Positions 719-41,693 are shown, counted from the first letter of the stretch. The stretch: DNA of 41,798 nt from a virus (IMGVR_UViG_3300045988_016066:1-41798); one strand, 5' to 3'. Notes: generated by a model not told the origin, from the letters alone. Made by a program: numbers and translations.

Positions 719-1221
719 TTCCATGTCCCTCCTGCTTTGAATTTTGCCACGGCGTCCTTCCATCCGCTGCCGGTCTTGACCTTGACTTGCGCGGGCTTCC
801 ATCCGCCGCCGGTTTTTATATAAACCGTCGCGCCGTGCAGCGCGGGGGCGGTAAAGGTCGCGGTTTGAACAGCTACCACGTTGTTCACGCAGCCGACCTT
901 TGCGGCTATCGTTACGCCCTCGCCAGCATCACCTACGAAATAGAACGTTGTCGTGCCCTTTGATACGGCGAAGGACGTGTCCTCCGTTCCGGTAACGTCG
1001 CCAATGTCGCACCGGAGCTTCCATTTCTCCGGAGGGTAATACGTCCCGTAGCTGCCGTCGCCGCTCGTCAGCTCGGCTTTGACAGCAAATTGTCTGCCGT
1101 TCAGTCGTGCGATATGAAGCGTTCCGGAAAGGCTCCAATGGTTCGCTCTTCCATAAATGCTTTTTTCCTGCTCCCAAGCGCTGCCGCCTGGAAGCTCCGG
1201 CGCTGTCTGTGACCATGCCAT
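715..1221 (-). CDS. Tail-fibre module protein with C-terminal GGxWK repeats (receptor-binding accessory?)
   Basis: 168-aa ORF. Its stop overlaps the endolysin ATG (ATGA). C-terminus is YIKTGGGWKPAQVKVKTGSGWKDAVAKFKAGGTWK. The role is inferred from position only. Confidence 0.55.
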   Translation of the reverse strand: MAWSQTAPELPGGSAWEQEKSIYGRANHWSLSGTLHIARLNGRQFAVKAELTSGDGSYGTYYPPEKWKLRCDIGDVTGTEDTSFAVSKGTTTFYFVGDAGEGVTIAAKVGCVNNVVAVQTATFTAPALHGATVYIKTGGGWKPAQVKVKTGSGWKDAVAKFKAGGTWK

Positions 1222-4769: not shown

Positions 4770-5135
4770 CTATCTCTCCACAAGGGCGAGCGCATCAATG
4801 TTCCAGCGTTCTTTCCCATCACCGAAAGATGTATCGACCGTAGCCTTGCCGGTGCTGTTGTACATCGTCGTGACTTGAGTACCCTTTAACCACGGGTTTG
4901 TGTATGTTACTTCGACGTACTCCGGCATAAGCGTCGGAAGAACGATCTCGGCGTCTTTGGTGTACAGCGGCTTAAATGTTGCATCAATGCGGAATTTTGT
5001 TGCGATCCTCGCCCGGTGCATCGTGTAATCCATCGTGCGCCCTGCGTCCGAGCTGTCGCCGTCCTCTCTGGTCACGGTGTACCCGCCGCCGTCAAGATAC
5101 GGAAGCATATCAACGCCGTTGACAATCAGCTTCAT
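4770..5135 (-). CDS. Distal-tail-protein-like small protein
   Basis: 121-aa ORF with an ATGA overlap to the tape measure stop. Assignment is by position. Confidence 0.55.
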   Translation of the reverse strand: MKLIVNGVDMLPYLDGGGYTVTREDGDSSDAGRTMDYTMHRARIATKFRIDATFKPLYTKDAEIVLPTLMPEYVEVTYTNPWLKGTQVTTMYNSTGKATVDTSFGDGKERWNIDALALVER

Positions 5136-10475: not shown

Positions 10476-11696
10476 TCAGCCCACGGTAACGGCAGCCGTG
10501 CCGGACTTCGTGCCGTCCTGCTTGGAAGTCGCGGTAACGGTCAGCGCAGTATTCGTCTCGTTGGAGGCGATAGTCAGCGTGCCGTTCTCGTCGATCTTCG
10601 TTCCAGCCTTAACAGCAGCCGTGCCGGAAACACTCCACAGCACGCCATTAGACACCGCACCCTCGCCGGTCACAGCGGCGGAAAATGCCTTGCTAGCGCC
10701 CTTAGCAACGGTAGCGGTGGCCGGGGTTACGGTAACGGTGTTGACCGTACCGGCGGGAGCATAAACCGCGAACGGGCAGTACTTCGACAGGGTGTCGTTG
10801 TACGCCGTCTTCGGGTTCGGGATTTCCCAGCCGAGACGCATAACCGCACGCAGAGCGACCATGTCATTCTGCATGAGGTTGTAAACGATGGAGTTGTCGG
10901 AAGGATCCTGCACAACGCCCTGATCGAAAATCTTAAACGTAATGTCCTGACGGATGGAGTACACCAGCTCCGACCAGTCACCGGCAAACATAAGCGCCTT
11001 GGCAGTGTCAAAAGCGCCGTTGCGCGGGAAGTACATAGGAGAGCCGTCCAGCGCATAAGGCGTCGCGCCCTGCATATCGGTTTTGAAGATGGGATTGCCG
11101 TTCAGGTCTTTCAGACCGCGCAGCTTCGCGCGCATCTGGATAGCGGACATAATGCCGTTGACGAGATAGCCGCTCTCTTCGACCTTGGCAATCACGCCGC
11201 CCTCGGCGAGAAGGTCGTCATAAATGTACGGCGTCGCCGCCACGACGGAACCGGCCTTCGTGCAAGTCTCAAGGACGCTATCGCGCCAAGAGGTGGGCTT
11301 GTTCGTACCGAACAGGATAGCACCGTCAATGACCTTGCCGAACGCCTCGACCAGACGCGGGCGGACTTCGCCCCAGATGTCATAGTCGGCGTCGTCAAGC
11401 ACCGCCTCCGGAATGGGGACGATGACGGCGATCTCTTCGGCATAGATTTTCTTCTTGTCCCACTTCATCTTAGTGGTCTGCTTCATGCCGGTATCGCCGT
11501 TCACGAAGTAGGCGGTGGGAAGCATGTCCAGAACGTTCATCGTCTGGGTCTTGCTCGTCATGTTGGGGAGGCGGCGTCCCATCTGGAGGACGGCGCTGCC
11601 CTCGGTCACGCCCTGGATGATCTCACGGGTGACAGGTTCCGGGATAAGCCCGGAAAGGTCAGTTCTGTTTACAATGTTAGTAGCCATATTAGTCAT
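10476..11696 (-). CDS. Major capsid protein (HK97 fold) with C-terminal Ig-like (Big_2-type) domain
   Basis: 406 aa. N-terminal ~310 aa are typical of an HK97-family MCP (LPNMTSKTQTMNVLDMLPTAYFV...EEIAVIVPIPEAVLDDADYDIW). C-terminal ~90 aa are TVTVTPATATVAKGASKAFSAAVTGEG...VLWSVSG...TVTATSKQDGTKSGTAAVTVG. Confidence 0.9.
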   Translation of the reverse strand: MTNMATNIVNRTDLSGLIPEPVTREIIQGVTEGSAVLQMGRRLPNMTSKTQTMNVLDMLPTAYFVNGDTGMKQTTKMKWDKKKIYAEEIAVIVPIPEAVLDDADYDIWGEVRPRLVEAFGKVIDGAILFGTNKPTSWRDSVLETCTKAGSVVAATPYIYDDLLAEGGVIAKVEESGYLVNGIMSAIQMRAKLRGLKDLNGNPIFKTDMQGATPYALDGSPMYFPRNGAFDTAKALMFAGDWSELVYSIRQDITFKIFDQGVVQDPSDNSIVYNLMQNDMVALRAVMRLGWEIPNPKTAYNDTLSKYCPFAVYAPAGTVNTVTVTPATATVAKGASKAFSAAVTGEGAVSNGVLWSVSGTAAVKAGTKIDENGTLTIASNETNTALTVTATSKQDGTKSGTAAVTVG

Positions 11697-12477: not shown

Positions 12478-13710
12478 TTATTTATTGGCCGCTTTCTGCG
12501 CCTCTCGCGCTTCTTTCGGCCCGAACTCTGCGATGTTTCCGCGCTCGTATTGTGGCCGCAATCCTGCCGCCTTGCTGAAAGCCTCGTATTCCTCGTTTAG
12601 ACGACGATACCGCACAGCCTTTGTGGTATACTCCTCATCGTCTCCGCGCCCCTTGGCGGCTATCAGCTCTCGTTTAACTTTACGCAGGGACGCTTCGACC
12701 TGTCTCTGCTTTTGTGTCGCCTCGTAAAAGGTGTATTGCTTGCCTTCAAACTCAAAAGGCGGCGGGTCGATGTTCTCCAATTCCTCATCGGTGTATGTCC
12801 GCTCGGAAACGCCCTCAATCCAGATGTGGTACATATGGCGGCAGTTAGCGCCACACAAGCCGTCCACCTCGTCAAGACCGCAGACCTCATATATAGACGG
12901 GTAAATATCGCCGGTACGGACGGAATAAATGCGCCCCTGCCATTTCTTGTGGCTCGCCCATGGCGTTTTACCCTCTCCATCTCGTGCCCCACGGTGCGCC
13001 GTAACCTCTCTGTACGGAGTGTCAAGCAACGTCGCCGTCTGCTCCGTGTACTGCCGGGAAAGCTGGGTAACGCCCGTCATAACAGCTCTGCGGGCGGCAA
13101 CGTCAACGCGGTTATGCCAGCCGGATTCATAGTCAACGTACTGCAAGCCGCTGTCCGTCAGCATCTTAGTTGCATCGCGGATCGCCACGTTATAGCTCTG
13201 CCCGCTCTCCACGCGCATCAAGGCGTCGTCAAGCACGCGCTGGTACATCCTTCCTATATCATCGACCTTTACCGTACCGTCCGGCGCTCTGTACGCAAAG
13301 CCCATGCTGCGGGTAATGTTCGTCAGTTCTCCGAGCGTCTGCATCTCGATAGCCCGTATCTCCTGCATGAACAGGTCGGCATTGAAATTGTTTTCGCCGA
13401 GAATAAGGTTGTCGTCGATCAGCGTATCAAAATACTGCTGGTTTCGTTGGACAGCCTTGTTCCATACGGTGTCAAACTCGCTCTGCGTGAGCTTTAGGGT
13501 CTTTTGGATATACTCATTGATTTTCTTGTAATCGTATCCCCGCCGCTGCAAAGACCGTATATGCTCTATCGCCGTCTCCGTCATTTCTCCGGTCATGGCA
13601 ACACGGGAGCATATGTCCTCAAGGATTTGCTCTTCTAAACGCTGATATAGCCGCATAAGCGGCAGGGGCAGGGAGTACATAAACTCCGGCGTGATTGGAT
13701 ATTTTGCCAT
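12478..13710 (-). CDS. Minor capsid / head morphogenesis protein (Phage_min_cap2-like, SPP1 gp7/MuF position)
   Basis: 410 aa, directly after the portal gene with a 1-nt overlap. Motifs: ...GWHNRVDVAARRAVMTGVTQLS...VTAHRGARDGEG...GLCGANCRH. Confidence 0.8.
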   Translation of the reverse strand: MAKYPITPEFMYSLPLPLMRLYQRLEEQILEDICSRVAMTGEMTETAIEHIRSLQRRGYDYKKINEYIQKTLKLTQSEFDTVWNKAVQRNQQYFDTLIDDNLILGENNFNADLFMQEIRAIEMQTLGELTNITRSMGFAYRAPDGTVKVDDIGRMYQRVLDDALMRVESGQSYNVAIRDATKMLTDSGLQYVDYESGWHNRVDVAARRAVMTGVTQLSRQYTEQTATLLDTPYREVTAHRGARDGEGKTPWASHKKWQGRIYSVRTGDIYPSIYEVCGLDEVDGLCGANCRHMYHIWIEGVSERTYTDEELENIDPPPFEFEGKQYTFYEATQKQRQVEASLRKVKRELIAAKGRGDDEEYTTKAVRYRRLNEEYEAFSKAAGLRPQYERGNIAEFGPKEAREAQKAANK

Positions 13711-15125
13711 TACTCATCGCCCGATACAAGGCTCTCCATCTGCGGCAGGGCGGCTTTTGCCGTTGCCTCGTCCTCATTCATATAACGCATACGAAACTCA
13801 TACGGCTGCATGATCCCCATCTGCACCATACGCGCATCTCGGTTAAACTCCGATTCCTTGTCCTCAATGATGGAATCGTCGAAATCAACCGTGATCTCAA
13901 CGTCCTCATTCAGCCCGGCATTCATATAAGCATTGCCCATTCGGAGAAGAACGCGGCACAGCTCAATGAGAACGCTTTCAAGGATGATCTCGTGCTTTTT
14001 GATCGTGCGGAACATCTCGGAGTTTTCGCTTATAATCTGCGTCGCTGTGGAGACGTTGCCATTGTCGTATTTGTAATGGTTCTCGCCAAAGCCACACTTG
14101 CTCGACAGGAGATTTAACATGTCCTGAATACCGGCGTTGTGTTCCGCCGTGCGGAGGTTCATGTTGATCTCTTTGATGATGTCGCCGTCCTGCCCGTCAG
14201 CGGGAAGAACGTAGAAAACAACGTCGCTCGTGTCAAAGAGCGGCTCGCCCGTGTGGAAATTCTTTGTTGCCTGCGGTTTGAGCATGACGCGCTTCTTGCC
14301 AAGCTGGAACTCGTTCACATAGCTGTCGTATGTCAGGTCAACGCCCTTTAGCTGATCTATGGCGTTCGCAAATACCGAAATGCCCATCGGCAGGGTTGCG
14401 TCAACGTTATTTACGATGTTCAGCCGGTCAATAACAAACATCCGCTGCGTGAACGGTGTATGCACGACCGGAGCTACATTTTCAAACCCCGGCACATCGG
14501 CAAGTTTCACCTCCGACAGGCTGCCCTTTGTGTCACGATACAAAAGGTTTTCGATGTCGTATGTGCCCTTTTCCGTCCGCTTGTGGATACAGATATAAAG
14601 GTAAGTGTCTTTCTTGACTGCCTTGTGAGAGCCGAACGCGCATTCGGTAACAATGCCGTTCTCCCATGTAAGGGGAAGGATAAGGTCAGCCGGGACATAG
14701 TCAATGCGGATCTCCCCGCCGCTGCCGTTCACCTTGCCCGTCTGCTCATCAACGGACGCATTAACGACCGTCGGAACATAAGCAACCGTGCCGCGAGCCG
14801 CCTTTATCTCCTGCATCTCGTTCGATTTGACGGTGAAGTTGTTCCGCTCAAAAACGGAATCAATGAAGTTCTGCTCTTTCTCCCCCTCAAGCGTTATCTT
14901 GCACTTTTCGTTCAGCAAGAGGTTCGCCCAGTCCTCGCAGACCTTTTTCGCCATGCCGAGAGAGTATAGGCGGCACGGGACGTACTTCATGCCGTTCCAG
15001 ATGCGGTACCGGTGGAATTGCTTCACGTAACCATCGTACCAGCTCTTCCAATTCTCTATGTAAGTGTAAAACTCTTCCGGTACGGTGGTGTACCCCCGTG
15101 CCAGCAAAACCTCGTAAATGTTCAT
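13710..15125 (-). CDS. Portal protein (SPP1 Gp6-like)
   Basis: 471 aa, abuts the TerL stop. N-terminus is YTYIENWKSWYDGYVKQFHRYRIWNGMKYVPCRLYSLGMAKKVCEDWANLLLNEK. Confidence 0.9.
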   Translation of the reverse strand: MNIYEVLLARGYTTVPEEFYTYIENWKSWYDGYVKQFHRYRIWNGMKYVPCRLYSLGMAKKVCEDWANLLLNEKCKITLEGEKEQNFIDSVFERNNFTVKSNEMQEIKAARGTVAYVPTVVNASVDEQTGKVNGSGGEIRIDYVPADLILPLTWENGIVTECAFGSHKAVKKDTYLYICIHKRTEKGTYDIENLLYRDTKGSLSEVKLADVPGFENVAPVVHTPFTQRMFVIDRLNIVNNVDATLPMGISVFANAIDQLKGVDLTYDSYVNEFQLGKKRVMLKPQATKNFHTGEPLFDTSDVVFYVLPADGQDGDIIKEINMNLRTAEHNAGIQDMLNLLSSKCGFGENHYKYDNGNVSTATQIISENSEMFRTIKKHEIILESVLIELCRVLLRMGNAYMNAGLNEDVEITVDFDDSIIEDKESEFNRDARMVQMGIMQPYEFRMRYMNEDEATAKAALPQMESLVSGDE

Positions 15126-16700
15126 TTATGCTTTCACTCCGTACAATCTGAAAACTTTCTCGAGCGCATAGCGCGTGCTGTCTATGGTGTGGTTGTCCTT
15201 GTCCGGGTATCCGCTTATCACATTTCCGTCCCGGTCTCGCTCAAATTCGTAATTTACAAACTCTCGGTAAACCGTCGGCGTCCTCTCCGGGTCAATAATG
15301 AGTTTTCGGTTTTGTAACCACTTCATCCCGTACTCGACGCTCCCCGGCCCCTTGATTGCCGAAAAAGCGTTTACACCGCTCGCCCGGAAGTCCGCAACGC
15401 TCTTCGGCTCCGCGCTATCGCAAGTCACGGGGAAATCGTCATATCCTCGGCTCTTTATCCACTCGGCATTGTCCGCGTTGCTCGTCTTGTTGTTGCAATG
15501 CTCATCAATAAAATATATCGTCTCATGCGCTACATCATAATGAACACGCACAAAGGCGAAAATGTCCGGGTAATATCCCCAGTCAACGCCTTGGTATATC
15601 CGGTCGAAGTGCTTTATCTCGTCGTCCGTTATCCGTCTTGCCTCTATGTTATCAAAAACGTTGCCGCCGTCGCCGTTCGGGATGCCGAGATATTCATGCT
15701 CGTATGCCGACGGATTAACCTCTTTCAGATGTTCAGCGTCGTTGAGAAACATCGTTCCGAGCCATTCGGCGGGAGCGTCCATATAGGTCGAGTGATGGAC
15801 AATGCGGTTTTTGTCCGGCTCTAAAAGCTGCTGATTCACCCAGTTTGCGCGGCTCTTTGGCGGGTTGTACGATCCGAAGAAATAGGAATCTACACCGCCG
15901 CGGAGTACCGATTGCTTAACGCTTCGTTCTTCTGCTGCACCGGCGAGCTGGTCTCGTTCCTCTATCCAGAGAATCCCTATATACCCGAATGGCGGCTTTA
16001 TTGATTTCAGCTTTACCGGATCGTCGCAACCTCGAAAATAAATCTTTTGCCCGGTCTTCTTGAGCGTGATCTCCGGCGGGTGGGTTTTGAAATCAAACTC
16101 GTTAGAAATCCCCATCTCGTTTATCGCCCATTGGATTTGAGAAAACACACTGTCCTTTAACGTGTTCGTCTGCTTTCGCACAACACAGGCGTGCATCATG
16201 GGGTTGTTTTTCAAAAGCTCCGTGAGCTTTTCCGATATATACGTCGATTTCAAGCCGCCGCGTCCGCCCTCAAAGATATAGTCCTTGTTCGGCTCGATCT
16301 GCCGGTTGATGTCAACAAACGCCTTGCCGATAAGGTCAGCGGGAATCCTGCACGGCTTATCCTCTGCCGCTGCGTCGTTTGTCCAGTTTTCCCACCGGTC
16401 AACAGCTCTGTCATCGCCGCTTATCGCCTTGCCGTATACGCCAGCGACAATGGCGGCATTACATGTCATATCCTCGTCGTCTATTGCAAGCCCTGTCCGC
16501 TGAATCTGCCCTTTCAGCTTTTCCGGCGCGGGCTGCTGCGCTATCGACTTTGCGAGGCTTGCAAGGCTCTTGTTAGCCCTCTTGGTCTCGCCTGAGGCTA
16601 TGCCGCCCTTTCGTCCATTTCTCGCGGCTTTCTCGCGGCTTTGATTCGCCGTGAACGCGTTCTTTTTTAAGTTCTCGTCCTGTTTGGGATTGCGTGGCAT
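15126..16700 (-). CDS. terL: Terminase large subunit (PBSX/Terminase_3-like) with ~110-aa TerS-like N-terminal extension
   Basis: Walker A is FEGGRGGLKS; also ...LWIEERDQ and a C-terminal nuclease region. N-terminus MPRNPKQDENLKK...NGRKGGIASGETKR...AIVAGVYGKAISGDDRAVDRW resembles small-terminase N-termini. Confidence 0.9.
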   Translation of the reverse strand: MPRNPKQDENLKKNAFTANQSREKAARNGRKGGIASGETKRANKSLASLAKSIAQQPAPEKLKGQIQRTGLAIDDEDMTCNAAIVAGVYGKAISGDDRAVDRWENWTNDAAAEDKPCRIPADLIGKAFVDINRQIEPNKDYIFEGGRGGLKSTYISEKLTELLKNNPMMHACVVRKQTNTLKDSVFSQIQWAINEMGISNEFDFKTHPPEITLKKTGQKIYFRGCDDPVKLKSIKPPFGYIGILWIEERDQLAGAAEERSVKQSVLRGGVDSYFFGSYNPPKSRANWVNQQLLEPDKNRIVHHSTYMDAPAEWLGTMFLNDAEHLKEVNPSAYEHEYLGIPNGDGGNVFDNIEARRITDDEIKHFDRIYQGVDWGYYPDIFAFVRVHYDVAHETIYFIDEHCNNKTSNADNAEWIKSRGYDDFPVTCDSAEPKSVADFRASGVNAFSAIKGPGSVEYGMKWLQNRKLIIDPERTPTVYREFVNYEFERDRDGNVISGYPDKDNHTIDSTRYALEKVFRLYGVKA

Positions 16701-34698: not shown

Positions 34699-35139
34699 AT
34701 GAAAAATGGGAAAATGGTTGTATGCAAGTGCTGCGGCGCAGAAATCGCAAAGAGCGCTAAGGTATGCCCTAATTGCGGAGCGCGGCGCGGTCGTAAGTGG
34801 TGGCAGATTGTTCTTGGCATTATTATTTTGATTTCCGGCATTGGTACGTTAGCCGGAACGTTCGGCGATTATACGGCATCGTCTCCGAGCGCAACAGCGA
34901 AGCCGGACACTACAATTTCAATGTCCGAATTTAAGCGTATCGAAACCGGAATGACATACGACGAGGTTGTTGAGATCGTGGGGACAGACGGCGAACTCTC
35001 TACCTCCGTCGATATGTTCGGAAGCGAGCTGAAAACGGAAATGTACGTCTGGCGCGGGAACGGTTCAATAGGCTCAAACGCGAACGTTACATTTCAAGGC
35101 GGTACGGTCATTGCGAAATCACAGGTAGGGCTTAAATAA
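34699..35139 (+). CDS. Zinc-ribbon / single-TM protein with extracytoplasmic domain (superinfection-exclusion candidate)
   Basis: VCKCCGAEIAKSAKVCPNCGA, TM segment WWQIVLGIIILISGIGTLAGTF, then an ~85-aa domain (SMSEFKRIETGMTYDEVVEIVG...VWRGNGSIGSNANVTFQGG). Lies between the repressor and integrase. Confidence 0.7.
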   Translation: MKNGKMVVCKCCGAEIAKSAKVCPNCGARRGRKWWQIVLGIIILISGIGTLAGTFGDYTASSPSATAKPDTTISMSEFKRIETGMTYDEVVEIVGTDGELSTSVDMFGSELKTEMYVWRGNGSIGSNANVTFQGGTVIAKSQVGLK

Positions 35140-35330: not shown

Positions 35331-35891
35331 GTGTCCGCGCTCACAGACCTACAGCCTTACTTAGATGATTATCCCACCAAAATTCGCAAGGCGAAAAATG
35401 CCAGCGGCTTCACCCTGCAAGAGTTGTCTGACCTGTCCGGCGTACCCTATAACAACGTATGCGACACAAATGCAGGGCGGGTCAAGCACCCGCTCCTTTT
35501 TTATGCCGCTGCCACTTGCAAGGTATTGAATCTATCACTGAATGAGCTTGTCGGTCTGGATGAACAGCCGGACACGCAGTATGTCCATGAGCTGGAATTG
35601 GAGAACGTGCGGTTATCCGGCGAGGTAAAGCATCTGCAAGAAATGAACGCAGGGATGAAAAAGCAGGTGGAAACGCACACAAGGACGATTTATATGCTCA
35701 TCGGCGTATGCAGTATTCTTTTATGTGCCGTTGTGTGGTACGTCATTTTTGACATTCAGGTAGAGACCGCCGGGATTTTCCGCTCGGCGGGGACAAGCGT
35801 TTTTGCGGGCGTCCTCGCCCTGATACTGAACGCAGCCGTCGCAACTATCATTTACGCGTTCAAAAGCATCCGCAAAGGGAGAAAGAAATGA
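35331..35891 (+). CDS. Membrane-tethered XRE-family HTH protein (coiled coil plus two C-terminal TM segments)
   Basis: IRKAKNASGFTLQELSDLSGVPYNNVCD...LNLSLNELVG. TM segments are IYMLIGVCSILLCAVVWYVIF and VFAGVLALILNAAVATIIYAF. Stop overlaps the integrase ATG (ATGA). The GTG at 35331 is chosen as start and is uncertain (the ORF track starts at 35184). Confidence 0.6.
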   Translation: MSALTDLQPYLDDYPTKIRKAKNASGFTLQELSDLSGVPYNNVCDTNAGRVKHPLLFYAAATCKVLNLSLNELVGLDEQPDTQYVHELELENVRLSGEVKHLQEMNAGMKKQVETHTRTIYMLIGVCSILLCAVVWYVIFDIQVETAGIFRSAGTSVFAGVLALILNAAVATIIYAFKSIRKGRKK

Positions 35892-37516
35892 GACTGACAC
35901 ACGGAGCGTACATTCTTGCGCGCTTCTCAACCGACAACCAGGAGGTAGACAGCATCGACGTGCAGGTGCAGAAGTGCCGCGAGTGGTGCGCACGGGAGCA
36001 TCTGCCTGTGCTGGACGTGTTCGCTGACGAGGCTACATCCGGCATGAAGAACACGCGGCCGGAGTATTCACGCATGATGCGCCAGCTCGCCGACGGCGGC
36101 GCGGACACGGTTGTTATCTACGATCAGTCACGAATGTTCCGCAAGCTGACGGCATGGTTTCAATTCCGCGAACAGATGGCGTGCTACGGTGTGCGCGTTG
36201 TTGCCGTGACGCAGCCGATCATCGGCGGCGATCTGCGCGACCCGATGACGTTTCTGTCCGAGGGCAGCATGGCTCTGATGAATCAGATGTGGGTGCTTCA
36301 AACGCGGCAGAAGGTAATCGAAAAGATGCGTTACATGGCGGAACAGGGAAAGCACACCGGCGGAAAGCCGCCGCTTGGGTACGACGTAGAGGACGAGCGC
36401 CTTGTCATCAACGAGGATGAGGCTGAAACCGTACGTGAGATATTCCGGCAGTACGCCGCGGGGAAATCGTATCGGGAAATAATAAAATGGCTGAACGATT
36501 CCGGGAAGCGCACCAAACGCGGCGGATGCTTCGGAACGAACAGCCTGCATGACCTGTTGAAAAATGAGAAGTATATCGGGAATATTGTGTACGGCAGGAG
36601 CGAGCGCCGACCGGACGGTACGCGAAATTCGCATTCTTTTTCTATCAGAACCATGCGGATGGAGAACGCCGTCCCGGCAATCATCGACCGTGAAACGTGG
36701 GAAAGGGTGCAGAAGAAGATGGAAGATAACCGACGTGTGCAGGCTGGCAGGCCACCGAAGGCACGAGAATACCCGCTCAAGGGGAAAGTGTTCTGCCGCG
36801 AATGCAAAAGCGCCATGACGATCGTCAGCTCGAAAAAGACGTATTACTATTACGCGTGTTCAGGGAAAAAGCGAACCGGGCAATGTGATAATCCGCAGAT
36901 CGGCGCAGGAGAGCTGGAAAACATCGTCGCTGATGCTATACGCGAAATCCTGGGAAATCCGGGAAACATAGAAAACATTATCAGCATTATCCGAGAAGAG
37001 AAAAACGAAATAATCAACGTCGCCACACAGCGGATGCAAATTCTTCTCGCCCGAAGGATGGAAATCAACCGGCAGCTCGAAGCGGGAACAAATGCGATTC
37101 TTGCGGGGCTGCACAGCCAGACATTGAAAACGAAGATGCAGGAGCTTGAAGAAGAGCTTGCGGAAATTGACCAGCAAATGACAACGCTGAAACACAGCGC
37201 CGATGGTACGCAGATACCAGAGGATCGCCTTAGGGCGCTGTTAAACGCCGCAGGAGACGATATAAACGCGCTTTTGTCGTTGGTAATGCGCGTGGAAGTC
37301 GGCAAAGACAAAATCGTTGTATGGACGCTTCTGGACGCAGACCCTGACGGACATTTTGACTTTTCCGAAGATGGAATAAACATTGACTTACAGCCGGTAG
37401 ACCGAGGGGACGAAAATTCAGGGTGTCCCCTCACCGGTACCATGAATTTCCATAACTTTTTCATCGCAGGCGGGCTACTAAGATTCAGCATACCGCGAAA
37501 GAAACGCTGGGGTTAA
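35888..37516 (+). CDS. int: Large serine recombinase (phage integrase)
   Basis: 542 aa. N-terminal resolvase domain GAYILARFSTDNQEVDSIDVQ (catalytic Ser context), recombinase domain, zinc-ribbon CRECKSAM...YYACSGKKRTGQC, and a C-terminal coiled coil. Confidence 0.9.
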   Translation: MRLTHGAYILARFSTDNQEVDSIDVQVQKCREWCAREHLPVLDVFADEATSGMKNTRPEYSRMMRQLADGGADTVVIYDQSRMFRKLTAWFQFREQMACYGVRVVAVTQPIIGGDLRDPMTFLSEGSMALMNQMWVLQTRQKVIEKMRYMAEQGKHTGGKPPLGYDVEDERLVINEDEAETVREIFRQYAAGKSYREIIKWLNDSGKRTKRGGCFGTNSLHDLLKNEKYIGNIVYGRSERRPDGTRNSHSFSIRTMRMENAVPAIIDRETWERVQKKMEDNRRVQAGRPPKAREYPLKGKVFCRECKSAMTIVSSKKTYYYYACSGKKRTGQCDNPQIGAGELENIVADAIREILGNPGNIENIISIIREEKNEIINVATQRMQILLARRMEINRQLEAGTNAILAGLHSQTLKTKMQELEEELAEIDQQMTTLKHSADGTQIPEDRLRALLNAAGDDINALLSLVMRVEVGKDKIVVWTLLDADPDGHFDFSEDGINIDLQPVDRGDENSGCPLTGTMNFHNFFIAGGLLRFSIPRKKRWG

Positions 37517-37647: not shown

Positions 37648-37920
37648 ATGAAATTTGAAATCATCGACAACCGCGAGCTTGATCTGAAAGGCAAGGGGTA
37701 CAAATGGAGCGACGCACCGTTGCAGTACGACAAAACCGTCCTTGACGACATCCGCCGCACCCGCGGCGAGAATTACGCCGACGACCTGAGCGACAATCTT
37801 TTCGACGGCTACTCCCCGATCTGCCGCGGCGAAGACGGCGAGCTGTACTCCGTGCTCTTCGACTTCGGCGGCGACGCTCCGCGCCCGGTGTTCTGGTGCA
37901 AGGTGGCAGTAAATGAGTGA
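37648..37920 (+). CDS. Acidic hypothetical protein (90 aa), first gene of a two-gene module
   Basis: GAAAGGAAC RBS. MKFEIIDNRELDLKGKGYKWSDAPLQYDKTVLDDIRRTRGENYADDLSDNLFDGYSPICRGEDGELYSVLFDFGGD. Confidence 0.65.
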   Translation: MKFEIIDNRELDLKGKGYKWSDAPLQYDKTVLDDIRRTRGENYADDLSDNLFDGYSPICRGEDGELYSVLFDFGGDAPRPVFWCKVAVNE

Positions 37921-38089
37921 GATCAAGGCGCTGCGTGAATCGACCGGGCTCACGCAGCGCGCCTTTGCAGAGCTGCTTGGAATCCCGAAACGAAGCATTG
38001 AAAACTGGGAGAGCGGTGTTTCCAAACCGCCGGAGTACGTCGTCCGGCTGATTGCATTTTACATTGCGAACAAGGAAAAGGAGGGCTGA
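37913..38089 (+). CDS. Small XRE-family HTH protein (58 aa)
   Basis: Not in the ORF track. Overlaps the upstream stop by 8 nt. MSEIKALRESTGLTQRAFAELLGIPKRSIENWESGVSKPPEYVVRLIAFYIANKEKEG. Confidence 0.75.
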   Translation: MSEIKALRESTGLTQRAFAELLGIPKRSIENWESGVSKPPEYVVRLIAFYIANKEKEG

Positions 38090-38110
38090 AAAGCCCTCCT
38101 TTTTGCTTTG
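38079..38110. terminator. Bidirectional terminator between the convergent plus-strand module and the minus-strand cassette
   Basis: AGGAGGGCT-gaaa-AGCCCTCCT followed by ttttgctttg. The upstream flank gives TTTCCTT on the other strand. Confidence 0.8.
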
Positions 38111-38111
38111 C

Positions 38112-38666
38112 TCACTCAACGATGCATTCATAATACCGGACAAGCTTATCCTCGTCCGCGTCCTTATCGCAAAGGAACGCTTCGGCAAGGTCGGCGTAAA
38201 ACTCCGTGTTGTTGACGTTGAATTTCTTTGCCACCTTGTAATAGTCCGAATACAGCATGTTCATGGCGACGTAGAACTCCATCGGATCACAGTCTATTTT
38301 CTTCTGCTCAAGAAGATTCTTGGTCTGGTCATAGCTCCAATGCGCGCCCCTGCTGCCGTCCTCATTCTCAAGGCCACGCATCCACTCGTCCGCCATTTCG
38401 CGGGTCATGCGGTCGTACCCTCCGGCATAGCCGCGGTCGTACTCGCCGCCGTAGCTCTCGCCCATACGAGGCTCGTAGGAGAATCCAATTCGGCGGCGGT
38501 CGTCGTAGTAGTCCGTGTATTCGTCGCGGTAGTCATTACGCGGAGCATAGCGCCCGTTGTTGTAATGCTCGCGGCCTCGGCTGTCGCGGTATCTGTCCTG
38601 CGGCTCATAGTCACGGTTATTCTGTATCTGGTAGTCTCGGATTCGTCTTATTCTGTCCGCTCTCAT
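38112..38666 (-). CDS. Cassette protein 5: Arg/Asp/Tyr-rich low-complexity N-terminus plus globular C-terminal domain, unknown
   Basis: 184 aa. RDYQIQNNRDYEPQDRYRDSRGREHYNNGRYAPRNDYRDEYTDYYDDRRR..., then MTREMADEWMRGLENEDGSRGAHWSYDQTKNLLEQKKIDCDP. Confidence 0.7.
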   Translation of the reverse strand: MRADRIRRIRDYQIQNNRDYEPQDRYRDSRGREHYNNGRYAPRNDYRDEYTDYYDDRRRIGFSYEPRMGESYGGEYDRGYAGGYDRMTREMADEWMRGLENEDGSRGAHWSYDQTKNLLEQKKIDCDPMEFYVAMNMLYSDYYKVAKKFNVNNTEFYADLAEAFLCDKDADEDKLVRYYECIVE

Positions 38667-39052
38667 GTCGTCGCTCCTGTCTCCGCGTTAATGGCGGTAA
38701 GATCATTGCTCGGCGAGCAGCACGGCTTCCCGATCATTCGGAACGTGCCGCCCGTGGCGTTGGTGACTACAATCGTGCTGTACTTCGTCCGCGTCCGCAC
38801 ACCACATGCAGTTACGGGAGCGCAGCAACGATTCGTCAGCGGGAACTGCGCCGTTCCCGCGCCGATGGTAAACACGACAGGTGCGTTAATCGTCGCCGTC
38901 GTTGGGATGCTCTGCGCCAGAACGATACAGTATTTTTCACCGTTGGAATAGTTGCCGTCCGGGAGGTTGACAACCAGATTTCCGCCGGTAAACGTGATCG
39001 ACTGGCTAAGGATCAGCCTTTTGCAAAGCTGACATACAGGTTTGCAAGCCAT
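38663..39052 (-). CDS. Cassette protein 4: Cys-rich beta-type protein (129 aa), unknown
   Basis: AAAGGAG RBS. MACKPVCQLCKRLILSQSITFTGGNLVVNLPDGNYSNGEKYCIV...NRCCAPVTACG...GKPCCSPS (10 Cys). Confidence 0.7.
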   Translation of the reverse strand: MACKPVCQLCKRLILSQSITFTGGNLVVNLPDGNYSNGEKYCIVLAQSIPTTATINAPVVFTIGAGTAQFPLTNRCCAPVTACGVRTRTKYSTIVVTNATGGTFRMIGKPCCSPSNDLTAINAETGATT

Positions 39053-39067
39053 TTTTAACTCCTTTCA

Positions 39068-39087
39068 GGGGCGGGATGTCCCGCCCC
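39068..39087 (-). other. Intercistronic GC hairpin
   Basis: GGGGCGGG-atgt-CCCGCCCC between cassette genes 3 and 4, with no U-tract. Confidence 0.6.
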
Positions 39088-39097
39088 GATCACATTT

Positions 39098-39817
39098 TCA
39101 GCACCCGCAACAGGTGTTCTGGTTGCAGCAGTAAGGGTTCTGCACCTGATACGCGGGAACGGGGGACGGGCGCAGCGCGTTAATGAGCGTCGCGTTCTGG
39201 GCACTCTGGGACGCGGCCAGACGCAGCGCCTGGTTGTCCGCTTCAAGGCTCTGAATCTTGCTCTGCGTGAGGAAATCGAGGATAGCGCGGGTTCCGGCGT
39301 TCTGGTTGTCCGTGATGTCGCGAGCAGCATTCTGGATGGTGTTCCGAGTATCGCACGCCTGCGTAGCCATGTCATAGCGCACCTGCGCGATAGCCTGCCG
39401 ATTCTCGCAGCAGCAGTTCTGGTTCTGCATCTGCATGGCGTTAAGCTGCTGCATGAGCGCCGCCTGCTGATTGCATCGGGCAAGCTCCGCCGCAGAGAAT
39501 CCGCTCGTCACGGCCTGCGTCACACCGGCAAAGCCGTTAAGCATTCCGGTATTCATCGCGTAGAAGCCGTCACAAACGCCATTGTTCACCGCGTCGATCT
39601 TGCGCTCAATGTTCGCATAGTCAGAGGTAAGAACATAGCCATCGACTACACCGCCGGAATTACCGCCGCCGCCGAAGCCATAGCCGCCGTTGCCCCAACC
39701 GAAAATCAGCGCAAAGATGATGATAGCCCACCAACCGTCACCGCCGAACATCCCGCCGCGGTTGGAATTTCCGTCGCCCTGTCCGGCGAGGAATCCGCTC
39801 ATAAAATCGTCTGCCAT
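39098..39817 (-). CDS. Cassette protein 3: Gly-rich N-terminus, one TM, Gln/Asn-rich helical region, Cys clusters (239 aa), unknown
   Basis: ATG at 39817 after ATAGGAG. MADDFMSGFLAGQGDGNSNRGGMFGGDGWWAIIIFALIFGWGNGGYGFGGGGNSGG...NQNCCCENRQ...YCCNQNTCCGC. Confidence 0.7.
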   Translation of the reverse strand: MADDFMSGFLAGQGDGNSNRGGMFGGDGWWAIIIFALIFGWGNGGYGFGGGGNSGGVVDGYVLTSDYANIERKIDAVNNGVCDGFYAMNTGMLNGFAGVTQAVTSGFSAAELARCNQQAALMQQLNAMQMQNQNCCCENRQAIAQVRYDMATQACDTRNTIQNAARDITDNQNAGTRAILDFLTQSKIQSLEADNQALRLAASQSAQNATLINALRPSPVPAYQVQNPYCCNQNTCCGC

Positions 39818-39825
39818 AGAAAAAA

Positions 39826-39914
39826 CTCCTATCAGTTTATTTACATCCGGGCGCGCGCCTCCCGTCTGCATTCGAGAAGCGGCTTTTTGTCAAGATGCCG
39901 TAAACTGATAGGAG
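39826..39914 (-). promoter_or_regulatory. 14-bp perfect long-range inverted repeat that pairs the SD of cassette gene 3 (followed by U6)
   Basis: Minus-strand RNA: CUCCUAUCAGUUUA (39914..39901) - 61 nt - UAAACUGAUAGGAG (39839..39826) - UUUUUUCU - AUG. Confidence 0.75.
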
Positions 39915-39919
39915 AGTGT

Positions 39920-40141
39920 TTATTTAAGCCCTAATCCTCGGGCGATTTCGTCCACGGTCGTTCCGCGTTCCTTCGCCATATTCTCCGCCATCTGCCGGAT
40001 CTGGTCGGGCGTCTTGCCCTGTACCATCTTTAATGCCTGTTGCGCTCGCGGATCACGTCCCGCCATCTGCTGTATTAGCGTCATCGGGTTTCCGCCGGTA
40101 CGGGCGAGGTTAATCAAGTTGAAAATCGGATTATTCATCAT
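39920..40141 (-). CDS. Cassette protein 2: small helical protein (73 aa), unknown
   Basis: MMNNPIFNLINLARTGGNPMTLIQQMAGRDPRAQQALKMVQGKTPDQIRQMAENMAKERGTTVDEIARGLGLK. Confidence 0.65.
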   Translation of the reverse strand: MMNNPIFNLINLARTGGNPMTLIQQMAGRDPRAQQALKMVQGKTPDQIRQMAENMAKERGTTVDEIARGLGLK

Positions 40142-40484
40142 CGTCTTCTACCCTCCGGCGCTTTTTCGCTGTCAGCTCCGCACGAAGCGCGTCAAGGTCG
40201 GCTTTCGTCGCGTACTCTACAGTCGGAGTTTGTTCCGGGGTGAAGAGCTTGAAATCAAAGAAGTCGGAAGCGCCTGTCTGCTGGTTAAATCGTTTCAGGT
40301 ATATCATTCCGTGCCCGATGTCCGGCATAACGACGCCGAGAGAAAAGTAGTCCGTGCTCGTGGCAATAGCCTCTTCGCGGCTCGTGACCGGCTTGCAGAC
40401 GTATCCGGGAGCAATCTGCTGCATTGTTTGCGGCCTCTGATATCCGCCGTAAAACTGCTGTGGCTGTTGGTAGTAGTTTTCCAT
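40131..40484 (-). CDS. Cassette protein 1: Gln/Tyr-rich N-terminus, charged C-tail (117 aa), unknown
   Basis: ATG at 40484 after GAAAGGA. MENYYQQPQQFYGGYQRPQTMQQIAPGYVCKPVTSREEAIATSTDYFSLGVVMPDIGHGMIYLKRFNQQTGASDFFDF. Confidence 0.65.
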   Translation of the reverse strand: MENYYQQPQQFYGGYQRPQTMQQIAPGYVCKPVTSREEAIATSTDYFSLGVVMPDIGHGMIYLKRFNQQTGASDFFDFKLFTPEQTPTVEYATKADLDALRAELTAKKRRRVEDDDE

Positions 40485-40517
40485 TGCTTCACGTCCTTTC
40501 CTCTTACATTGTCGCAC

Positions 40518-40550
40518 AAAAAAAGAGGGCTAACCCATCGGTTAGCCCTC
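40518..40550 (-). terminator. Strong intrinsic terminator separating the lysis/sigma-like genes from the cassette
   Basis: Minus strand reads GAGGGCTAACC-gatg-GGTTAGCCCTC followed by TTTTTTT. Confidence 0.85.
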
Positions 40551-40570: not shown

Positions 40571-40834
40571 TCATTCGATTGCAGCGGCGATCTTGTCCTT
40601 GATCGCCCGTATACGGCGCTCGACTTTCTCTGTGCCGTACAGTTCCGTGTCCGTCTGCATGGCGAAGGAGATTTGCAAAACGCTCATGCCCTTTGCCCGC
40701 AGACGGAAGATTTTTAATTCCTCATCGGTAAAGCCGCAGTCTCGCTCAAACTGTTCGCGCAGCTCTCGCGGGAATTGCAGCTTATTTTTTGTCCCCGGCG
40801 TTGTTAAACTCCGTAGGAGGCTCTCTGTCGTCAT
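40571..40834 (-). CDS. Small sigma-70 region-4 / LuxR-like HTH protein
   Basis: ...FERDCGFTDEELKIFRLRAKGMSVLQISFAMQTDTELYGTEKVERRIRAIKDKI. The N-terminal 18 aa look non-native, so this may be the 3' part of a frameshifted gene. Confidence 0.6.
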   Translation of the reverse strand: MTTESLLRSLTTPGTKNKLQFPRELREQFERDCGFTDEELKIFRLRAKGMSVLQISFAMQTDTELYGTEKVERRIRAIKDKIAAAIE

Positions 40835-40973: not shown

Positions 40974-41294
40974 TCAGGCGGCGTTGAACTTGTCGTTCAT
41001 TTCCTTAACGGCAGCTTCGAGGAGAACTTTCAGCTCGTATTCCGTGGTCTTGATGCCTTTCTGGTCGAGCATGGAGGCAGCAACGGCCATGGCACGGGAA
41101 AGCTTCTCGTCGCCGTGGATATCCTTATACACCTGTTCAATATACGCAACGGTAGTTGCCGCTACCTTGCGTTTCGTGTCGGTGTTGACGTACTTTTCGT
41201 ACAGCTTCGCGGCGTAGGACGCGGCAATGCCGCAGACGGCGAGGATGATGTACTTAATAATTTCCAGACCGTAGGTAGTGATAATTTCGTTCAT
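40974..41294 (-). CDS. Holin, LL-H family-like
   Basis: 106 aa. N-terminal TM IIKYIILAVCGIAASYAA, then ...VAYIEQVYKDIHGDEKLSRAMAVAASMLDQKGIKTTEYELKVLLEAAVKEM. Confidence 0.7.
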   Translation of the reverse strand: MNEIITTYGLEIIKYIILAVCGIAASYAAKLYEKYVNTDTKRKVAATTVAYIEQVYKDIHGDEKLSRAMAVAASMLDQKGIKTTEYELKVLLEAAVKEMNDKFNAA

Positions 41295-41306: not shown

Positions 41307-41693
41307 TTACTTCAAAAAATCATTTTTCTTTAGATGTCCGGCGTAGACGCTGTTAAGGTGCTGGATGGTGTTTGCGGCGCGGTTGTTCTCGTACTGCGGG
41401 TGGCCAGAGCAGTAGTCCTCATATCGGTCAACGTCCCGGAGAACGTCCGCCCAATGCTCGGCGGTGTGCAAGACGCCCTGCCGCACCTCATCCCCAAAGC
41501 GGAGGATGCGGCTTCGCGCCTCGTCAGCGCGGCAGGCGGCGTCGTCCTCGATGTGCTTTACGAGCTTACCGTCGAGAGCGTCCAAACGCTTCACGATCTC
41601 GTTGTTGTTCTTACGGTTGGCGAGGATCAGCGAGAAGATGCCAGCAACGGCAGCCCCGCCGCATGCGGTGATGATTGCCTTTATGATTTCCAT
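41307..41693 (-). CDS. Membrane-anchored lysis-cassette protein (holin/antiholin accessory?)
   Basis: 128 aa. N-terminal TM IIKAIITACGGAAVAGIFSLILA, then ...ARSRILRFGDEVRQG...DVDRYEDYC. Lies between the endolysin and the holin. Confidence 0.6.
   Translation of the reverse strand: MEIIKAIITACGGAAVAGIFSLILANRKNNNEIVKRLDALDGKLVKHIEDDAACRADEARSRILRFGDEVRQGVLHTAEHWADVLRDVDRYEDYCSGHPQYENNRAANTIQHLNSVYAGHLKKNDFLK

Follow-up and report, generated by a model that had tools for sequence, protein, structure and literature searches.

A cassette of five co-oriented genes with unusual amino acid composition lies near one end of a 41,798-nucleotide viral stretch of DNA (IMGVR_UViG_3300045988_016066; here called the window), between two strong hairpin terminators and directly downstream of the holin gene. 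The locus raises the question of whether these genes are orphan moron or lysogenic-conversion cargo, as a sequence-only reading had suggested, or whether they belong to the lytic cycle of the phage itself. We found that the genes are one copy of a very widespread, uncharacterized module that also occurs in crAss-like gut phages and in a phage seen only in lytic growth, and we consider a role in the lytic cycle to be more likely than lysogenic conversion, while a specific role at the cell membrane is proposed only tentatively.

Gene content and evidence for coding

The features of the locus are as follows.

40571..40834 (-), sig, encoding an 87-amino-acid sigma-70 region-4/GerE-like HTH protein, the last gene before the terminator and a candidate regulator of the module
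40525..40550 (-), intrinsic terminator with an 11-bp stem, 7 G-C pairs, and a following T7, which closes the late/lysis operon
40508..40516 (-), extended -10-like element TGCGACAAT immediately after the T tract, a candidate promoter of the module (inferred)
40131..40484 (-), g1, 117 amino acids from the ATG, with a Gln/Tyr/Pro-rich N terminus, a small conserved domain, and a charged C-terminal helix
39920..40141 (-), g2, a 73-amino-acid helical protein whose start overlaps the end of g1 by 11 nt
39815..39919 (-), structured leader RNA of g3
39098..39817 (-), g3, 239 amino acids, the core protein of the module
39068..39087 (-), G+C-rich hairpin between g3 and g4 without a T run, possibly an mRNA stabilizer or processing site (inferred)
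38663..39052 (-), g4, a 129-amino-acid beta-rich protein with 9 Cys
38112..38666 (-), g5, 184 amino acids, with an N-terminal R/D/Y-rich low-complexity region and a C-terminal DUF7841 domain
38076..38110 (approximate, both strands), bidirectional terminator hairpin that closes both the module and the convergent plus-strand HTH gene at 37913..38089

The observation of a compact, terminator-bracketed five-gene cassette was confirmed. The genes are tightly packed, with gaps of -11, 102, 45, and -4 nt, and all five are coding and under purifying selection, as dN/dS against two related loci was 0.05 to 0.25 (g1, 0.05; g2, 0.12 to 0.25; g4, 0.08 to 0.10; g5, 0.07 to 0.09). Because the homologues of g3 are 239 to 241 amino acids long, the upstream ATG at 39871 is probably not its start. 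The upstream terminator was found by a terminator scan and folds at -22.3 kcal/mol (z, -5.7). The downstream hairpin, which was missed by the scan because its stem absorbs the T run, folds at -27.3 kcal/mol on the minus strand and -26.5 kcal/mol on the plus strand (z, about -4.7 and -4.6), and the hairpin between g3 and g4 folds at -19.6 kcal/mol (z, -3.5). The upstream terminator is conserved in the related loci L001 and L005, and a strict terminator lies just before g1 in 19 of 70 related loci, against about 4% expected, even though the terminator sequences are unrelated to one another. After the T tract, other lineages carry TATACT, TATATT, or GAGAAT, followed by AATCAGAAA and the ribosome-binding site. 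No -35 box was seen, and the candidate promoter is inferred from sequence alone.

The compositional descriptions given by the sequence-only reading were essentially right, with two corrections: g4 has 9 Cys residues rather than 10, and the R/D/Y-rich part of g5 is its N-terminal 85 residues rather than a tail. The statement that none of the proteins could be placed in a family does not hold for g3 or g5. g5 matches Pfam DUF7841 (PF25223) over residues 81 to 180 (E, 1.8e-30; 106 bits against a cutoff of 25.2), and the homologues in L001 to L004, L092, and L093 carry the same hit. g3 matches phrog_16490, a family of unknown function, with an E value of 5.2e-41 over residues 34 to 252 of the long ORF.

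For the HTH gene upstream, the copy in the window has no Pfam hit at an E value of ≤0.01, whereas of 24 aligned homologues, 11 hit Sigma70_r4_2, 10 hit Sigma70_r4 (best E, 1.5e-09), and 6 hit GerE. The sequence-only description of a sigma-region-4-like gene at this position rests on the family rather than on the window copy.

Protein families and predicted structures

The genes are not orphans. g3 belongs to a family with over 8,000 clusters at 90% identity and 1,590 clusters at 50% identity, of which all those listed are 123 to 333 amino acids long, with no fusions. The protein has a Gly/Trp-rich hydrophobic anchor (about residues 28 to 42), a helix at 65 to 134, a CCC hinge at 135 to 137, a second helix at 138 to 215, and a Pro-rich tail ending in CCNQNTCCGC. 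The AlphaFold2 model (mean pLDDT, 61, reaching 70 to 91 over residues 140 to 220) predicts helices at 30 to 39, 65 to 134, and 138 to 215 with a break at the CCC, and a structural search with it returned no neighbors. The hydrophobic core of the putative anchor is short, at about 13 residues between Trp residues. As judged by eye, none of g1, g2, g4, and g5 has an N-terminal signal sequence or lipobox, which leaves g3 as the only membrane anchor.

g4 has about 2,059 homologues, with C7, C10, and C42 invariant and C3 near-invariant. Its AlphaFold2 model is unusable (pLDDT, 46), the Foldseek results obtained with it were noise, and no PDB sequence hit was found. g1 gave only a weak hit to phrog_21718 and no Pfam or PDB relatives, and no family was found for g2. 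The two parts of g5 occur in other lineages as one protein, as two adjacent proteins, or in swapped order.

The sequence-only reading had likened the set to self-assembling, cross-linkable spore-coat or envelope proteins. This analogy rests on composition only, namely, the Cys-rich g4, the Tyr/Arg/Asp-rich g5, and the Gly-rich hydrophobic segment of g3. No hits to Cot (CotY/Z, CotG/C), Exs (ExsY), or Cde (CdeC/M) families were found for g1 to g5 in Pfam or NCBIfam at an E value of ≤1, g3 did not hit the NCBIfam model of the YjcZ-type tiny Gly-rich sporulation membrane proteins (TIGR01732) at the same threshold, and PDB profile searches were empty. The only echo of the spore idea is a set of nonsignificant C1q/BclA-like hits (E, 0.5 to 2.6) for C0, an alternative protein that replaces g4 in other lineages and is not encoded in the window. 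The module core also occurs in crAss-like and Bacteroides phages, whose hosts do not sporulate, and in viruses assigned to archaea, and the full module occurs in a phage seen only in lytic growth (see below). This reading is close to refuted.

Conservation and distribution of the module

In 83 related loci, the gene order is fixed: sigma-region-4-like HTH, (terminator), g1, g2, g3, small beta protein, and disordered R/D/Y-rich protein with or without DUF7841. Homologues of sig lie just upstream of g1 in 27 of the 83 loci, g1 is present directly upstream of g2/g3 in 76, g2 lies between g1 and g3 in 55, and g4 follows g3 in 24. Elsewhere the place of g4 is taken by unrelated small beta proteins, namely, C0 (phrog_20016), C18, and gp24 of crAss-like phages; hhalign showed no relation between C0 and g4. 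Genome hits are mostly from Oscillospiraceae, Lachnospiraceae, and Bacilli.

Wherever holin and endolysin genes are recognizable, the module sits immediately after them. This is the case in the window (Phage_holin_6_1), in L001 to L004 (NlpC_P60/PG_binding endolysin and Dp1 holin), in the 58-kb phage PQ006096 (r1t holin and a C39-like peptidase), and in Butyrivibrio phage Ceridwen (glucosaminidase endolysin). In the cultured Bacteroides phage C3_41T2LP, however, the g3 homologue follows recombination and replication genes rather than lysis genes.

The module is not confined to temperate phages. Ceridwen, a cultured phage that has been seen only in lytic growth and is regarded as virulent by its authors (PMC7372960), carries g1, g3, C0, and C5, a Cys-His-Asp protein associated with the module (hhalign, 99.1 to 99.9%). 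PQ006096 has its own DNA polymerase and helicase, and no integrase was detected in it. The core of the module (DUF7841 protein, g3, and small beta protein) occurs in crAss-like Bacteroidota phages and in viruses assigned to methanogenic archaea, and g3 and DUF7841 homologues were also found in a cultured Bacteroides uniformis phage. In crAss-like cr52_1, gp22 matches the DUF7841 domain of g5 (99.6%) and carries a C-terminal R/D/E/Y-rich region, while gp23 matches g3 (99.95%; E, 1.7e-37). The g3 homologue in vir215 was annotated as phrog_16490 by its authors. gp23 carries two in-frame TAG codons, and TAG-recoded genes are translated late (PMC9523058); the module lies in the tail/endolysin region of cr52_1. 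The timing of expression is inferred, and the TAG argument applies to the crAss-like homologue only.

These findings argue against the proposal that the cassette is a moron with a lysogenic-conversion role, or a superinfection-exclusion cassette that would be expressed from the prophage, with g3 and its partners altering the envelope or blocking DNA entry by other phages. In favor of that proposal are the position at the extreme prophage end, next to host DNA or the integrase, the bracketing by terminators, and the -10-like element that follows the upstream one. A SIR2-STAND defense gene neighboring the module in L068 shows that this end is a cargo hotspot, and exclusion proteins are useful to virulent phages too. 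Against it, besides the distribution described above, the synteny is fixed across very divergent phages rather than patchy, the G+C content is not anomalous (0.559 against 0.531), the crAss homologue carries late-gene TAG recoding, and PADLOC models gave no hit at an E value of ≤1 for g1 to g5, sig, or the 128-amino-acid lysis-region protein. We regard the moron reading as unlikely.

A counterdefense or host takeover function related to the polyvalent protein theme, in which associated small peptidases would process or activate the other products, was also considered. C5 (phrog_3754) lies adjacent to the module in 36 of 83 loci, always directly before g1 or directly after the module, has invariant Cys, His, and Asp residues, and occurs in 174 phage records across phyla. 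HExxH proteins (C8/C20, PolyVal-like) follow the module in other lineages, and an annotated PolyVal metallopeptidase follows the g3 homologue in C3_41T2LP. Neither peptidase gene is present in the window, however, the link to polyvalent proteins rests on an annotation label and on general background, and late-region placement and TAG recoding fit poorly with early host takeover. This reading appears improbable.

A structured leader RNA upstream of g3

The sequence-only suggestion that g3 has its own RNA switch-like element is supported to the extent that a covarying structured leader is present. Its outer stem, P1 (CUCCUAUCAGUUUA / UAAACUGAUAGGAG), pairs with the g3 ribosome-binding site, P2 is a hairpin with the conserved loop CUUGAnAAAAA, and P3 is a G+C-rich hairpin followed by UGUAAAUAAA. 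The minimum free energy is -43.6 kcal/mol (z, -4.1), and RNAalifold gave 21 pairs, 12 of them with compensatory changes. In the alignment, 87.7% of cells are paired, against 74.1% in shuffles and 34 to 47% in slid controls. A covariance model found the leader in 11 loci, including one that was not in the seed. A search against Rfam gave no hit at gathering score in the whole window, and at an E value of ≤10 in 39700..40000 it gave only one irrelevant snoRNA hit on the opposite strand.

Proposed role in the lytic cycle

The interpretation offered by the sequence-only reading is only partly supported: the discrete unit, its position, the sigma-region-4-like gene upstream (as judged from its family), the RNA leader, and the compositional descriptions stand, whereas the orphan, lysogenic-conversion, and spore-coat readings are not supported. 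The explanation that we favor is that the five genes are the local copy of an ancient, conserved phage module acting in the lytic cycle. What the analysis establishes is the fixed gene order, with the structured leader between g2 and g3, the purifying selection on all five genes, the presence of the module in a phage seen only in lytic growth and of its core in crAss-like phages, the hydrophobic N-terminal anchor of g3 with two long helices broken at a conserved CCC, and the RNA stem that pairs with the g3 ribosome-binding site. The remainder, including any function at the membrane, is inference. In this view the module is a separate, very late transcription unit, since the late/lysis operon ends at the terminator, and the HTH protein encoded just before it may switch on the promoter that overlaps the T tract. 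g3 would be translated only when its leader is opened, the likely trigger being a ribosome terminating at the g2 stop codon, which lies 5 to 11 nt before the 5′ arm of P1 in most lineages, with a protein partner as the alternative. g3 would then insert into the cytoplasmic membrane and nucleate an assembly with the Cys-rich beta protein g4, possibly through shared Cys/metal clusters, and with the disordered proteins g5 and g1, and this assembly would act at the envelope at the end of infection, in lysis timing, envelope disruption, or release.

We consider it somewhat more likely than not that this is a conserved lytic-cycle module rather than a moron, whereas the specific membrane and lysis or egress role is tentative at best. 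No homology or structural match ties any of the proteins to a known lysis, egress, or membrane-remodeling factor, the phages already carry canonical holins, and monoderm hosts need no spanin. The outermost position next to host DNA in prophages and the terminators of its own are also typical of morons.

Alternatively, the proteins could form a virion-associated fiber or decoration, in which g3 would trimerize into a coiled-coil shaft anchored by its Gly/Trp-rich end, the variable small beta protein (g4, C0, C18, or crAss gp24) would be a separately encoded head domain attached through the Cys clusters, and g1, g2, and the DUF7841 protein would be assembly factors. g3 is a long two-helix coiled coil in the predicted model, and its crAss homologues have been labeled "spike protein/glycoprotein" or "outer capsid protein/viral fiber," although these labels are coiled-coil-level guesses. 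The position 4 protein is replaced by unrelated beta proteins between lineages, as receptor-binding heads are, and the only PDB hits for the C0 profile are C1q/TNF-like proteins, cerebellin-4 and BclA, but these are not significant and are not for g4. In cr52_1 and vir215 the module lies next to tail genes and a reverse transcriptase gene, and the late-gene TAG recoding of the crAss homologue would fit as well. In Firmicutes phages, by contrast, the module lies outside the tail block, behind the lysis genes and often behind a terminator, sequestration of the ribosome-binding site and a dedicated regulator are unusual for structural genes, and no solved virion protein matches by sequence or fold. 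We regard this alternative as unlikely.

It is also conceivable, though doubtful on present evidence, that this is an undescribed and very widespread late module of tailed viruses, shared in full or in its g3-centered core by Clostridia siphophages, crAss-like phages, Bacteroides phages, and viruses assigned to methanogenic archaea, which would build a membrane-anchored coiled-coil/Cys-cluster assembly needed at the end of infection. The module would then be a further component of lysis or egress beside holin, endolysin, and spanin, with its core gene gated by a new class of structured leader RNA and by a dedicated sigma-region-4-like regulator.

Comparison with known phage systems

The inner-membrane subunit of two-component spanins (lambda Rz type) has an N-terminal membrane anchor followed by two long helices separated by a hinge, conserved Cys, a gene next to those for holin and endolysin, and a C-terminal end that could dock a small partner. 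g3 corresponds to this architecture in its predicted model, but the match is architectural only: there is no sequence relation, no spanin PHROG or Pfam hit was found for g3, no partner carries a lipoprotein signal by eye, most hosts are monoderm and have no outer membrane to span, and g3 is much more Gln/Asn-rich and ends in a Cys cluster. T4 holin T with its antiholins RI/RIII (class III holin, lysis inhibition system) offers a second analogy of architecture, with one N-terminal transmembrane segment, a large C-terminal domain containing Cys, and small accessory proteins encoded nearby that could regulate it. g3 has no Pfam holin-T hit, its C-terminal part is an extended coiled coil rather than a globular domain, and these phages already encode canonical holins (LLH, Dp1, and r1t).

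BclA/C1q-TNF-like exosporium fiber heads and the Cys-rich ExsY/CotY proteins resemble the set in composition, as Cys-rich small proteins, and through the subthreshold C1q-like hits of C0; g4 itself shows no such similarity, and the module also occurs in phages of nonsporulating hosts. In the com-mom translational activation of phage Mu and in RNA phage-type translational coupling, a stem sequesters the ribosome-binding site of the downstream gene, and for g3 such a stem could be opened by an upstream-encoded small protein or by ribosomes terminating just before it. There is no sequence relation, and the g3 leader has three helices with conserved loop motifs. Classical morons and lysogenic-conversion cassettes of Gram-positive prophages, which lie downstream of lysis genes and next to att, share with the module its position and its bracketing by terminators. 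The module has no toxin, defense, or surface protein domains and differs further in its ordinary G+C content, in its presence in a phage seen only in lytic growth and in crAss-like phages, and in a multigene synteny that is conserved over hundreds of lineages.

Genome context of the five-gene cassette

The window is a siphovirus-type temperate phage genome. The features that define its layout and surround the cassette are the following.

15126..16700, minus strand, large terminase
13710..15125, minus strand, portal
10476..11696, minus strand, major head protein
5132..7285, minus strand, tape measure
35888..37516, plus strand, serine recombinase
40974..41294, minus strand, LLH-type holin
40571..40834, minus strand, 87-aa helix-turn-helix (HTH) gene
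40525..40550, minus strand, strong terminator (-22.3 kcal/mol, z -5.7)
40484..40131, minus strand, g1
40141..39920, minus strand, g2
39815..39919, structured RNA between g2 and g3
39817..39098, minus strand, g3
39068..39087, minus strand, G+C-rich 8-bp hairpin between g3 and g4
39052..38663, minus strand, g4
38666..38112, minus strand, g5
about 38076..38110, bidirectional terminator, shared with a convergent HTH gene

Homologues of g3 are 239 to 241 aa, and g3 therefore probably starts at MADDF (39817) and not at the upstream ATG. All five genes are under purifying selection, with dN/dS of 0.05-0.25 against two related loci. The observation made in a sequence-only reading, of five tightly packed, co-oriented genes between two strong terminators, is thus correct, although two of its details need fixing: g4 has 9 Cys rather than 10, and the R/D/Y-rich part of g5 is N-terminal rather than a tail. 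The hairpin between g3 and g4 has no T run (-19.6 kcal/mol, z -3.5) and may act in mRNA stability or processing.

No endolysin is recognizable next to the holin. The 128-aa protein upstream of the holin (41307..41693, minus strand; phrog_37604) has homologues lying between the endolysin and holin genes in four related loci (L001 to L004), and two ORFs at the other end of the window (91..534 and 715..1221, both minus strand) have no PHROG hit; the endolysin gene may lie across the window ends or be of a new type. Converging on the cassette and sharing its terminator are a 90-aa ORF with no family (37648..37920, plus strand) and, overlapped at its start by that ORF, a gene for a 58-aa XRE/HTH_3 protein (37913..38089, plus strand) that also weakly hits MqsA antitoxin and YdaS. 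The two could be a toxin-antitoxin-like or regulatory pair. In the lysogeny region, a 146-aa protein (34699..35139, plus strand) matches phrog_6148, "beta-lactamase-inhibitor protein BLIP" (E 3.8e-15), and phrog_37750, and it is a more conventional candidate for prophage cargo than the five-gene cassette.

A conserved gene module

The genes are not the orphans that had been proposed from sequence alone. The g5 product carries Pfam DUF7841 (E 1.8e-30), and g3 belongs to phrog_16490 (E 5e-41). Otherwise, Pfam, PHROG, NCBIfam, and PADLOC scans of the five proteins and their neighbors gave only PHROGs of unknown function. Searches with g3 saturated at about 8000 clusters, and the family has more than 8000 clusters, at 90% identity; a full scan of 1.84 billion cluster representatives found 1590 relatives (50%-identity clusters) at E<=1e-3 and 826 at E<=1e-10, those listed being 123 to 333 aa with none fused to another domain. 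About 2059 homologues of g4 were found. Single g3 variants are seen on more than 600 contigs, some of them inside contigs of hundreds of kilobases, which indicates prophages. The module is therefore among the commonest unexplained gene sets in gut phages.

To examine synteny, we collected 83 loci around g3 homologues from reference genomes and metagenomes and searched their ORFs iteratively with the window proteins. Of these loci, 76 contain g1, 55 contain g2, 24 contain g4, 25 contain g5, and 27 contain the HTH gene, and the order and strand are always the same. Where g4 is missing, g3 is followed by another small beta-rich protein with Cys-Cys motifs, either of family C0 (phrog_20016; 37 loci) or of family C18. 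Where g5 is missing, a protein with an R/G/Y/D-rich low-complexity core follows (families C7, C9, or C10), sometimes with a separate short DUF7841 protein after it. The module follows the lysis genes wherever these are recognizable, and after it comes a tyrosine or serine recombinase gene, host DNA, or an oppositely oriented replication block.

In 36 of the loci (among them L017:2102-2485 and L060:11876-12235), a 120- to 130-aa protein of family C5 (phrog_3754) is attached to one end of the module, either directly before g1 or directly after the last gene; it is not in this window. C5 has invariant Asn, Asp-Cys, Arg, His, and Asp and has no Pfam or PDB relative. It occurs in 174 phage records, including 122 of Pseudomonas phages, 23 of Bacillus phages, and the Lak megaphages, and is sometimes annotated as "putative peptidase." HExxH proteins follow the module in other lineages. 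A counter-defense module tied to these associated peptidases is one alternative reading, which we consider improbable.

The Pfam context of locus L068, from an Oscillospiraceae isolate genome, was uninformative apart from an 807-aa SIR2 plus STAND NTPase protein (L068:12185-14608, minus strand), which lies directly beyond the cassette on the opposite strand and has the look of a defense gene. In this locus, g1 and the HTH gene were not detected, and the upstream genes look rearranged.

Putative regulatory elements

A strict intrinsic terminator lies just before g1 in 19 of 70 loci, against about 4% expected. The terminator sequences are unrelated to one another, and three loci have two terminators in tandem. 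Directly after the T tract, many lineages have a -10-like hexamer and then AATCAGAAA before the ribosome-binding site, and the window has TGCGACAAT at 40516..40508. The family of the HTH gene is sigma-70 region-4/GerE-like; 11 of 24 members hit Sigma70_r4_2, although the window copy itself does not reach threshold.

In the structured RNA between g2 and g3, a 14-bp outer stem pairs with the g3 ribosome-binding site. An alignment of 10 loci gave 21 consensus pairs, 12 of them with compensatory changes, and 87.7% of cells pair, against 74.1% in shuffles and 34-47% when partners are slid. A covariance model recovered the element in 11 loci, including one not used to build it; all 11 belong to the sublineage that has g4, and most also have a DUF7841 protein. 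Rfam has nothing like it, and an E-value scan of the leader against Rfam also gave nothing. The leader is a candidate new cis-regulatory RNA with clear covariation. The idea that TTGACA in the leader is a -35 box was dropped, because the element 17 nt downstream is a poor -10 and the motif sits in the loop of a covarying hairpin. In most loci with the element, the 5' arm of the outer stem starts 5 to 11 nt after the g2 stop codon, and translational coupling is therefore a reasonable, but inferred, mechanism.

Lineages that lack the window-type leader (L006 to L023, L077, and others) carry other short palindromic G+C-rich hairpins 20 to 60 nt upstream of the g3 start, for example, AUCGUGGCCACGAU and CCGGCCGG, followed by GAUAAA or UGUAAAUA-like sequence just before the g3 ribosome-binding site, and several have other stems that pair with the ribosome-binding site. 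This suggests a wider family of g3 leaders than our covariance model captures.

Sequence and structure predictions for the proteins

An AlphaFold2 model of g3, built with a 98-sequence alignment, is plausible and helical. It comprises a short hydrophobic helix at residues 30-39, a helix at 65-134, a break at the nearly invariant CCC (residues 135-137), a helix at 138-215 with pLDDT of 70-91, and a disordered Pro-rich tail with a Cys cluster. Foldseek comparison of this model with PDB and BFVD found no neighbors, the best hits being vimentin at E 6.6 and a LysM protein at E 0.24. The model of g4, built with 31 sequences, is unusable (pLDDT 46), and Foldseek searches with it returned noise.

No PDB, Pfam, or NCBIfam relatives were found for g1, g2, g3, or g4. 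Pfam scans of 68 g3 homologues and 68 g1 homologues gave nothing consistent, and PDB sequence and profile searches for g1, g3, g4, g5, C0, and C5 gave nothing significant. The C0 profile gave only subthreshold hits, all to C1q/TNF-like proteins, including BclA. This is a lead for C0 only, and hhalign comparisons among the alternative proteins that follow g3 (g4, C0, C18, and gp24 of a crAss-like phage) found no relation.

Distribution among phages

Protein searches of GenBank phages showed that the module is not confined to temperate Clostridia phages. In the cultured Butyrivibrio phage Ceridwen, which has the full module, the order is endolysin, two small ORFs, a predicted terminator, C5, g1, a 66-aa ORF, g3, and C0 (hhalign, 99.1-99.9%). 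Its authors saw only lytic growth and regard it as virulent (PMC7372960). PQ006096, a 58-kb circular phage with its own DNA polymerase and helicase, has the module after its holin and endolysin, and no integrase was found in it by annotation or by tblastn.

The DUF7841 domain of g5 also hits crAss-like phages. In the crAss-like phage cr52_1 (NC_055888.1; locus L087, 2668..6557), gp22 consists of DUF7841 plus a C-terminal R/D/E/Y-rich region, gp23 is a full-length g3 homologue (99.95%, E 1.7e-37) with the same Gly/Trp anchor, CCC, ASQxAQ, PVPAY, and terminal GCGC motifs, and gp24 is another small beta-rich protein. The module sits in the tail/endolysin region of this genome. In-frame TAG codons are very uneven across neighboring genes, with 2 in gp20, 7 in gp21, 0 in gp22, 2 in gp23, 0 in gp24, and 7 in gp25. 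TAG-recoded genes of such phages are translated late in infection (PMC9523058). A search of the peptide tables of the crAss metaproteomics paper found no module peptides. The labels "RNA polymerase sigma factor/ubiquitin-like protein" (gp22) and "spike protein/glycoprotein" (gp23) in the crAss records look unfounded; these genes are the DUF7841 and g3 homologues. A virion fiber with a separately encoded head remains a rival explanation of the module, but an unlikely one in our estimate.

A g3 homologue also occurs in the cultured Bacteroides uniformis phage C3_41T2LP (OR296439.1; locus L089, 6725..9970), where it follows RecT, YqaJ, and HNH genes and is followed, after four small ORFs, by an annotated "PolyVal metallopeptidase" gene, which echoes the HExxH genes that follow the module in Firmicutes phages. 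Further g3 homologues occur in viruses assigned to Methanomassiliicoccales. The module links phages that otherwise share little, namely, temperate Clostridia siphophages, crAss-like podophages, and viruses assigned to archaea, and this points to a basic step of infection that current models (holin, endolysin, spanin, and structural genes) do not name. As Ceridwen and C3_41T2LP are both cultured, the question is accessible to direct testing.

Proposed role of the module

The module, or at least its core, is conserved across phages of sporulating and nonsporulating hosts and of monoderm and diderm hosts, and it occurs both in temperate phages and in phages seen only in lytic growth. It shows ordinary composition, as well as late-gene recoding in the one lineage where that can be read. 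These facts argue that it serves the phage's own lytic cycle, and they argue against lysogenic conversion and, strongly, against spore remodeling. The interpretation offered by the sequence-only reading, a moron or lysogenic-conversion cassette that might remodel the surface or spore or act in exclusion, mostly fails; an exclusion or conversion cassette is unlikely, and spore remodeling is very improbable.

Within the lytic cycle, several features fit a membrane-anchored assembly formed at the very end of infection and connected with lysis or release. Among the five proteins, g3 is the only one with a predicted membrane anchor; in Firmicutes phages, the module lies directly behind the holin and endolysin genes wherever these are recognizable; a putative dedicated regulator is encoded as the last gene of the late operon; and translation of the membrane protein would be gated by its leader. 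The gene order, the purifying selection, the phylogenetic spread, and the covarying stem that pairs with the g3 ribosome-binding site are results of the analysis, whereas the timing of expression, the action of the regulator, the gating of g3 translation, the assembly at the membrane, and every other step of the mechanism are inferred from sequence and prediction. We consider it more likely than not that this is a lytic-cycle module, but the envelope or lysis role is no more than possible, and the explanation as a whole is tentative.

For annotation, these results warn against reading a position downstream of lysis, bracketing by terminators, and odd composition as the signature of a moron and against trusting labels such as "spike protein" or "sigma factor/ubiquitin-like" now attached to these genes in crAss records.

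Comparison with known systems

The families of the module exist in databases only as "unknown function," and literature searches on DUF7841, the PHROG identifiers, the cultured Bacteroides phage, and Cys-rich prophage cassettes found no paper that describes it; we regard the module as new in kind. In its predicted architecture, g3 resembles an i-spanin (an anchor, two helices with a hinge, and Cys) and, more loosely, a class III holin with accessory proteins. It does not qualify as either, since there is no sequence relation, no lipoprotein partner was seen, and the hosts are mostly monoderm. The g3 leader, for its part, works on paper like Mu com-mom or like coupled translation in RNA phages.
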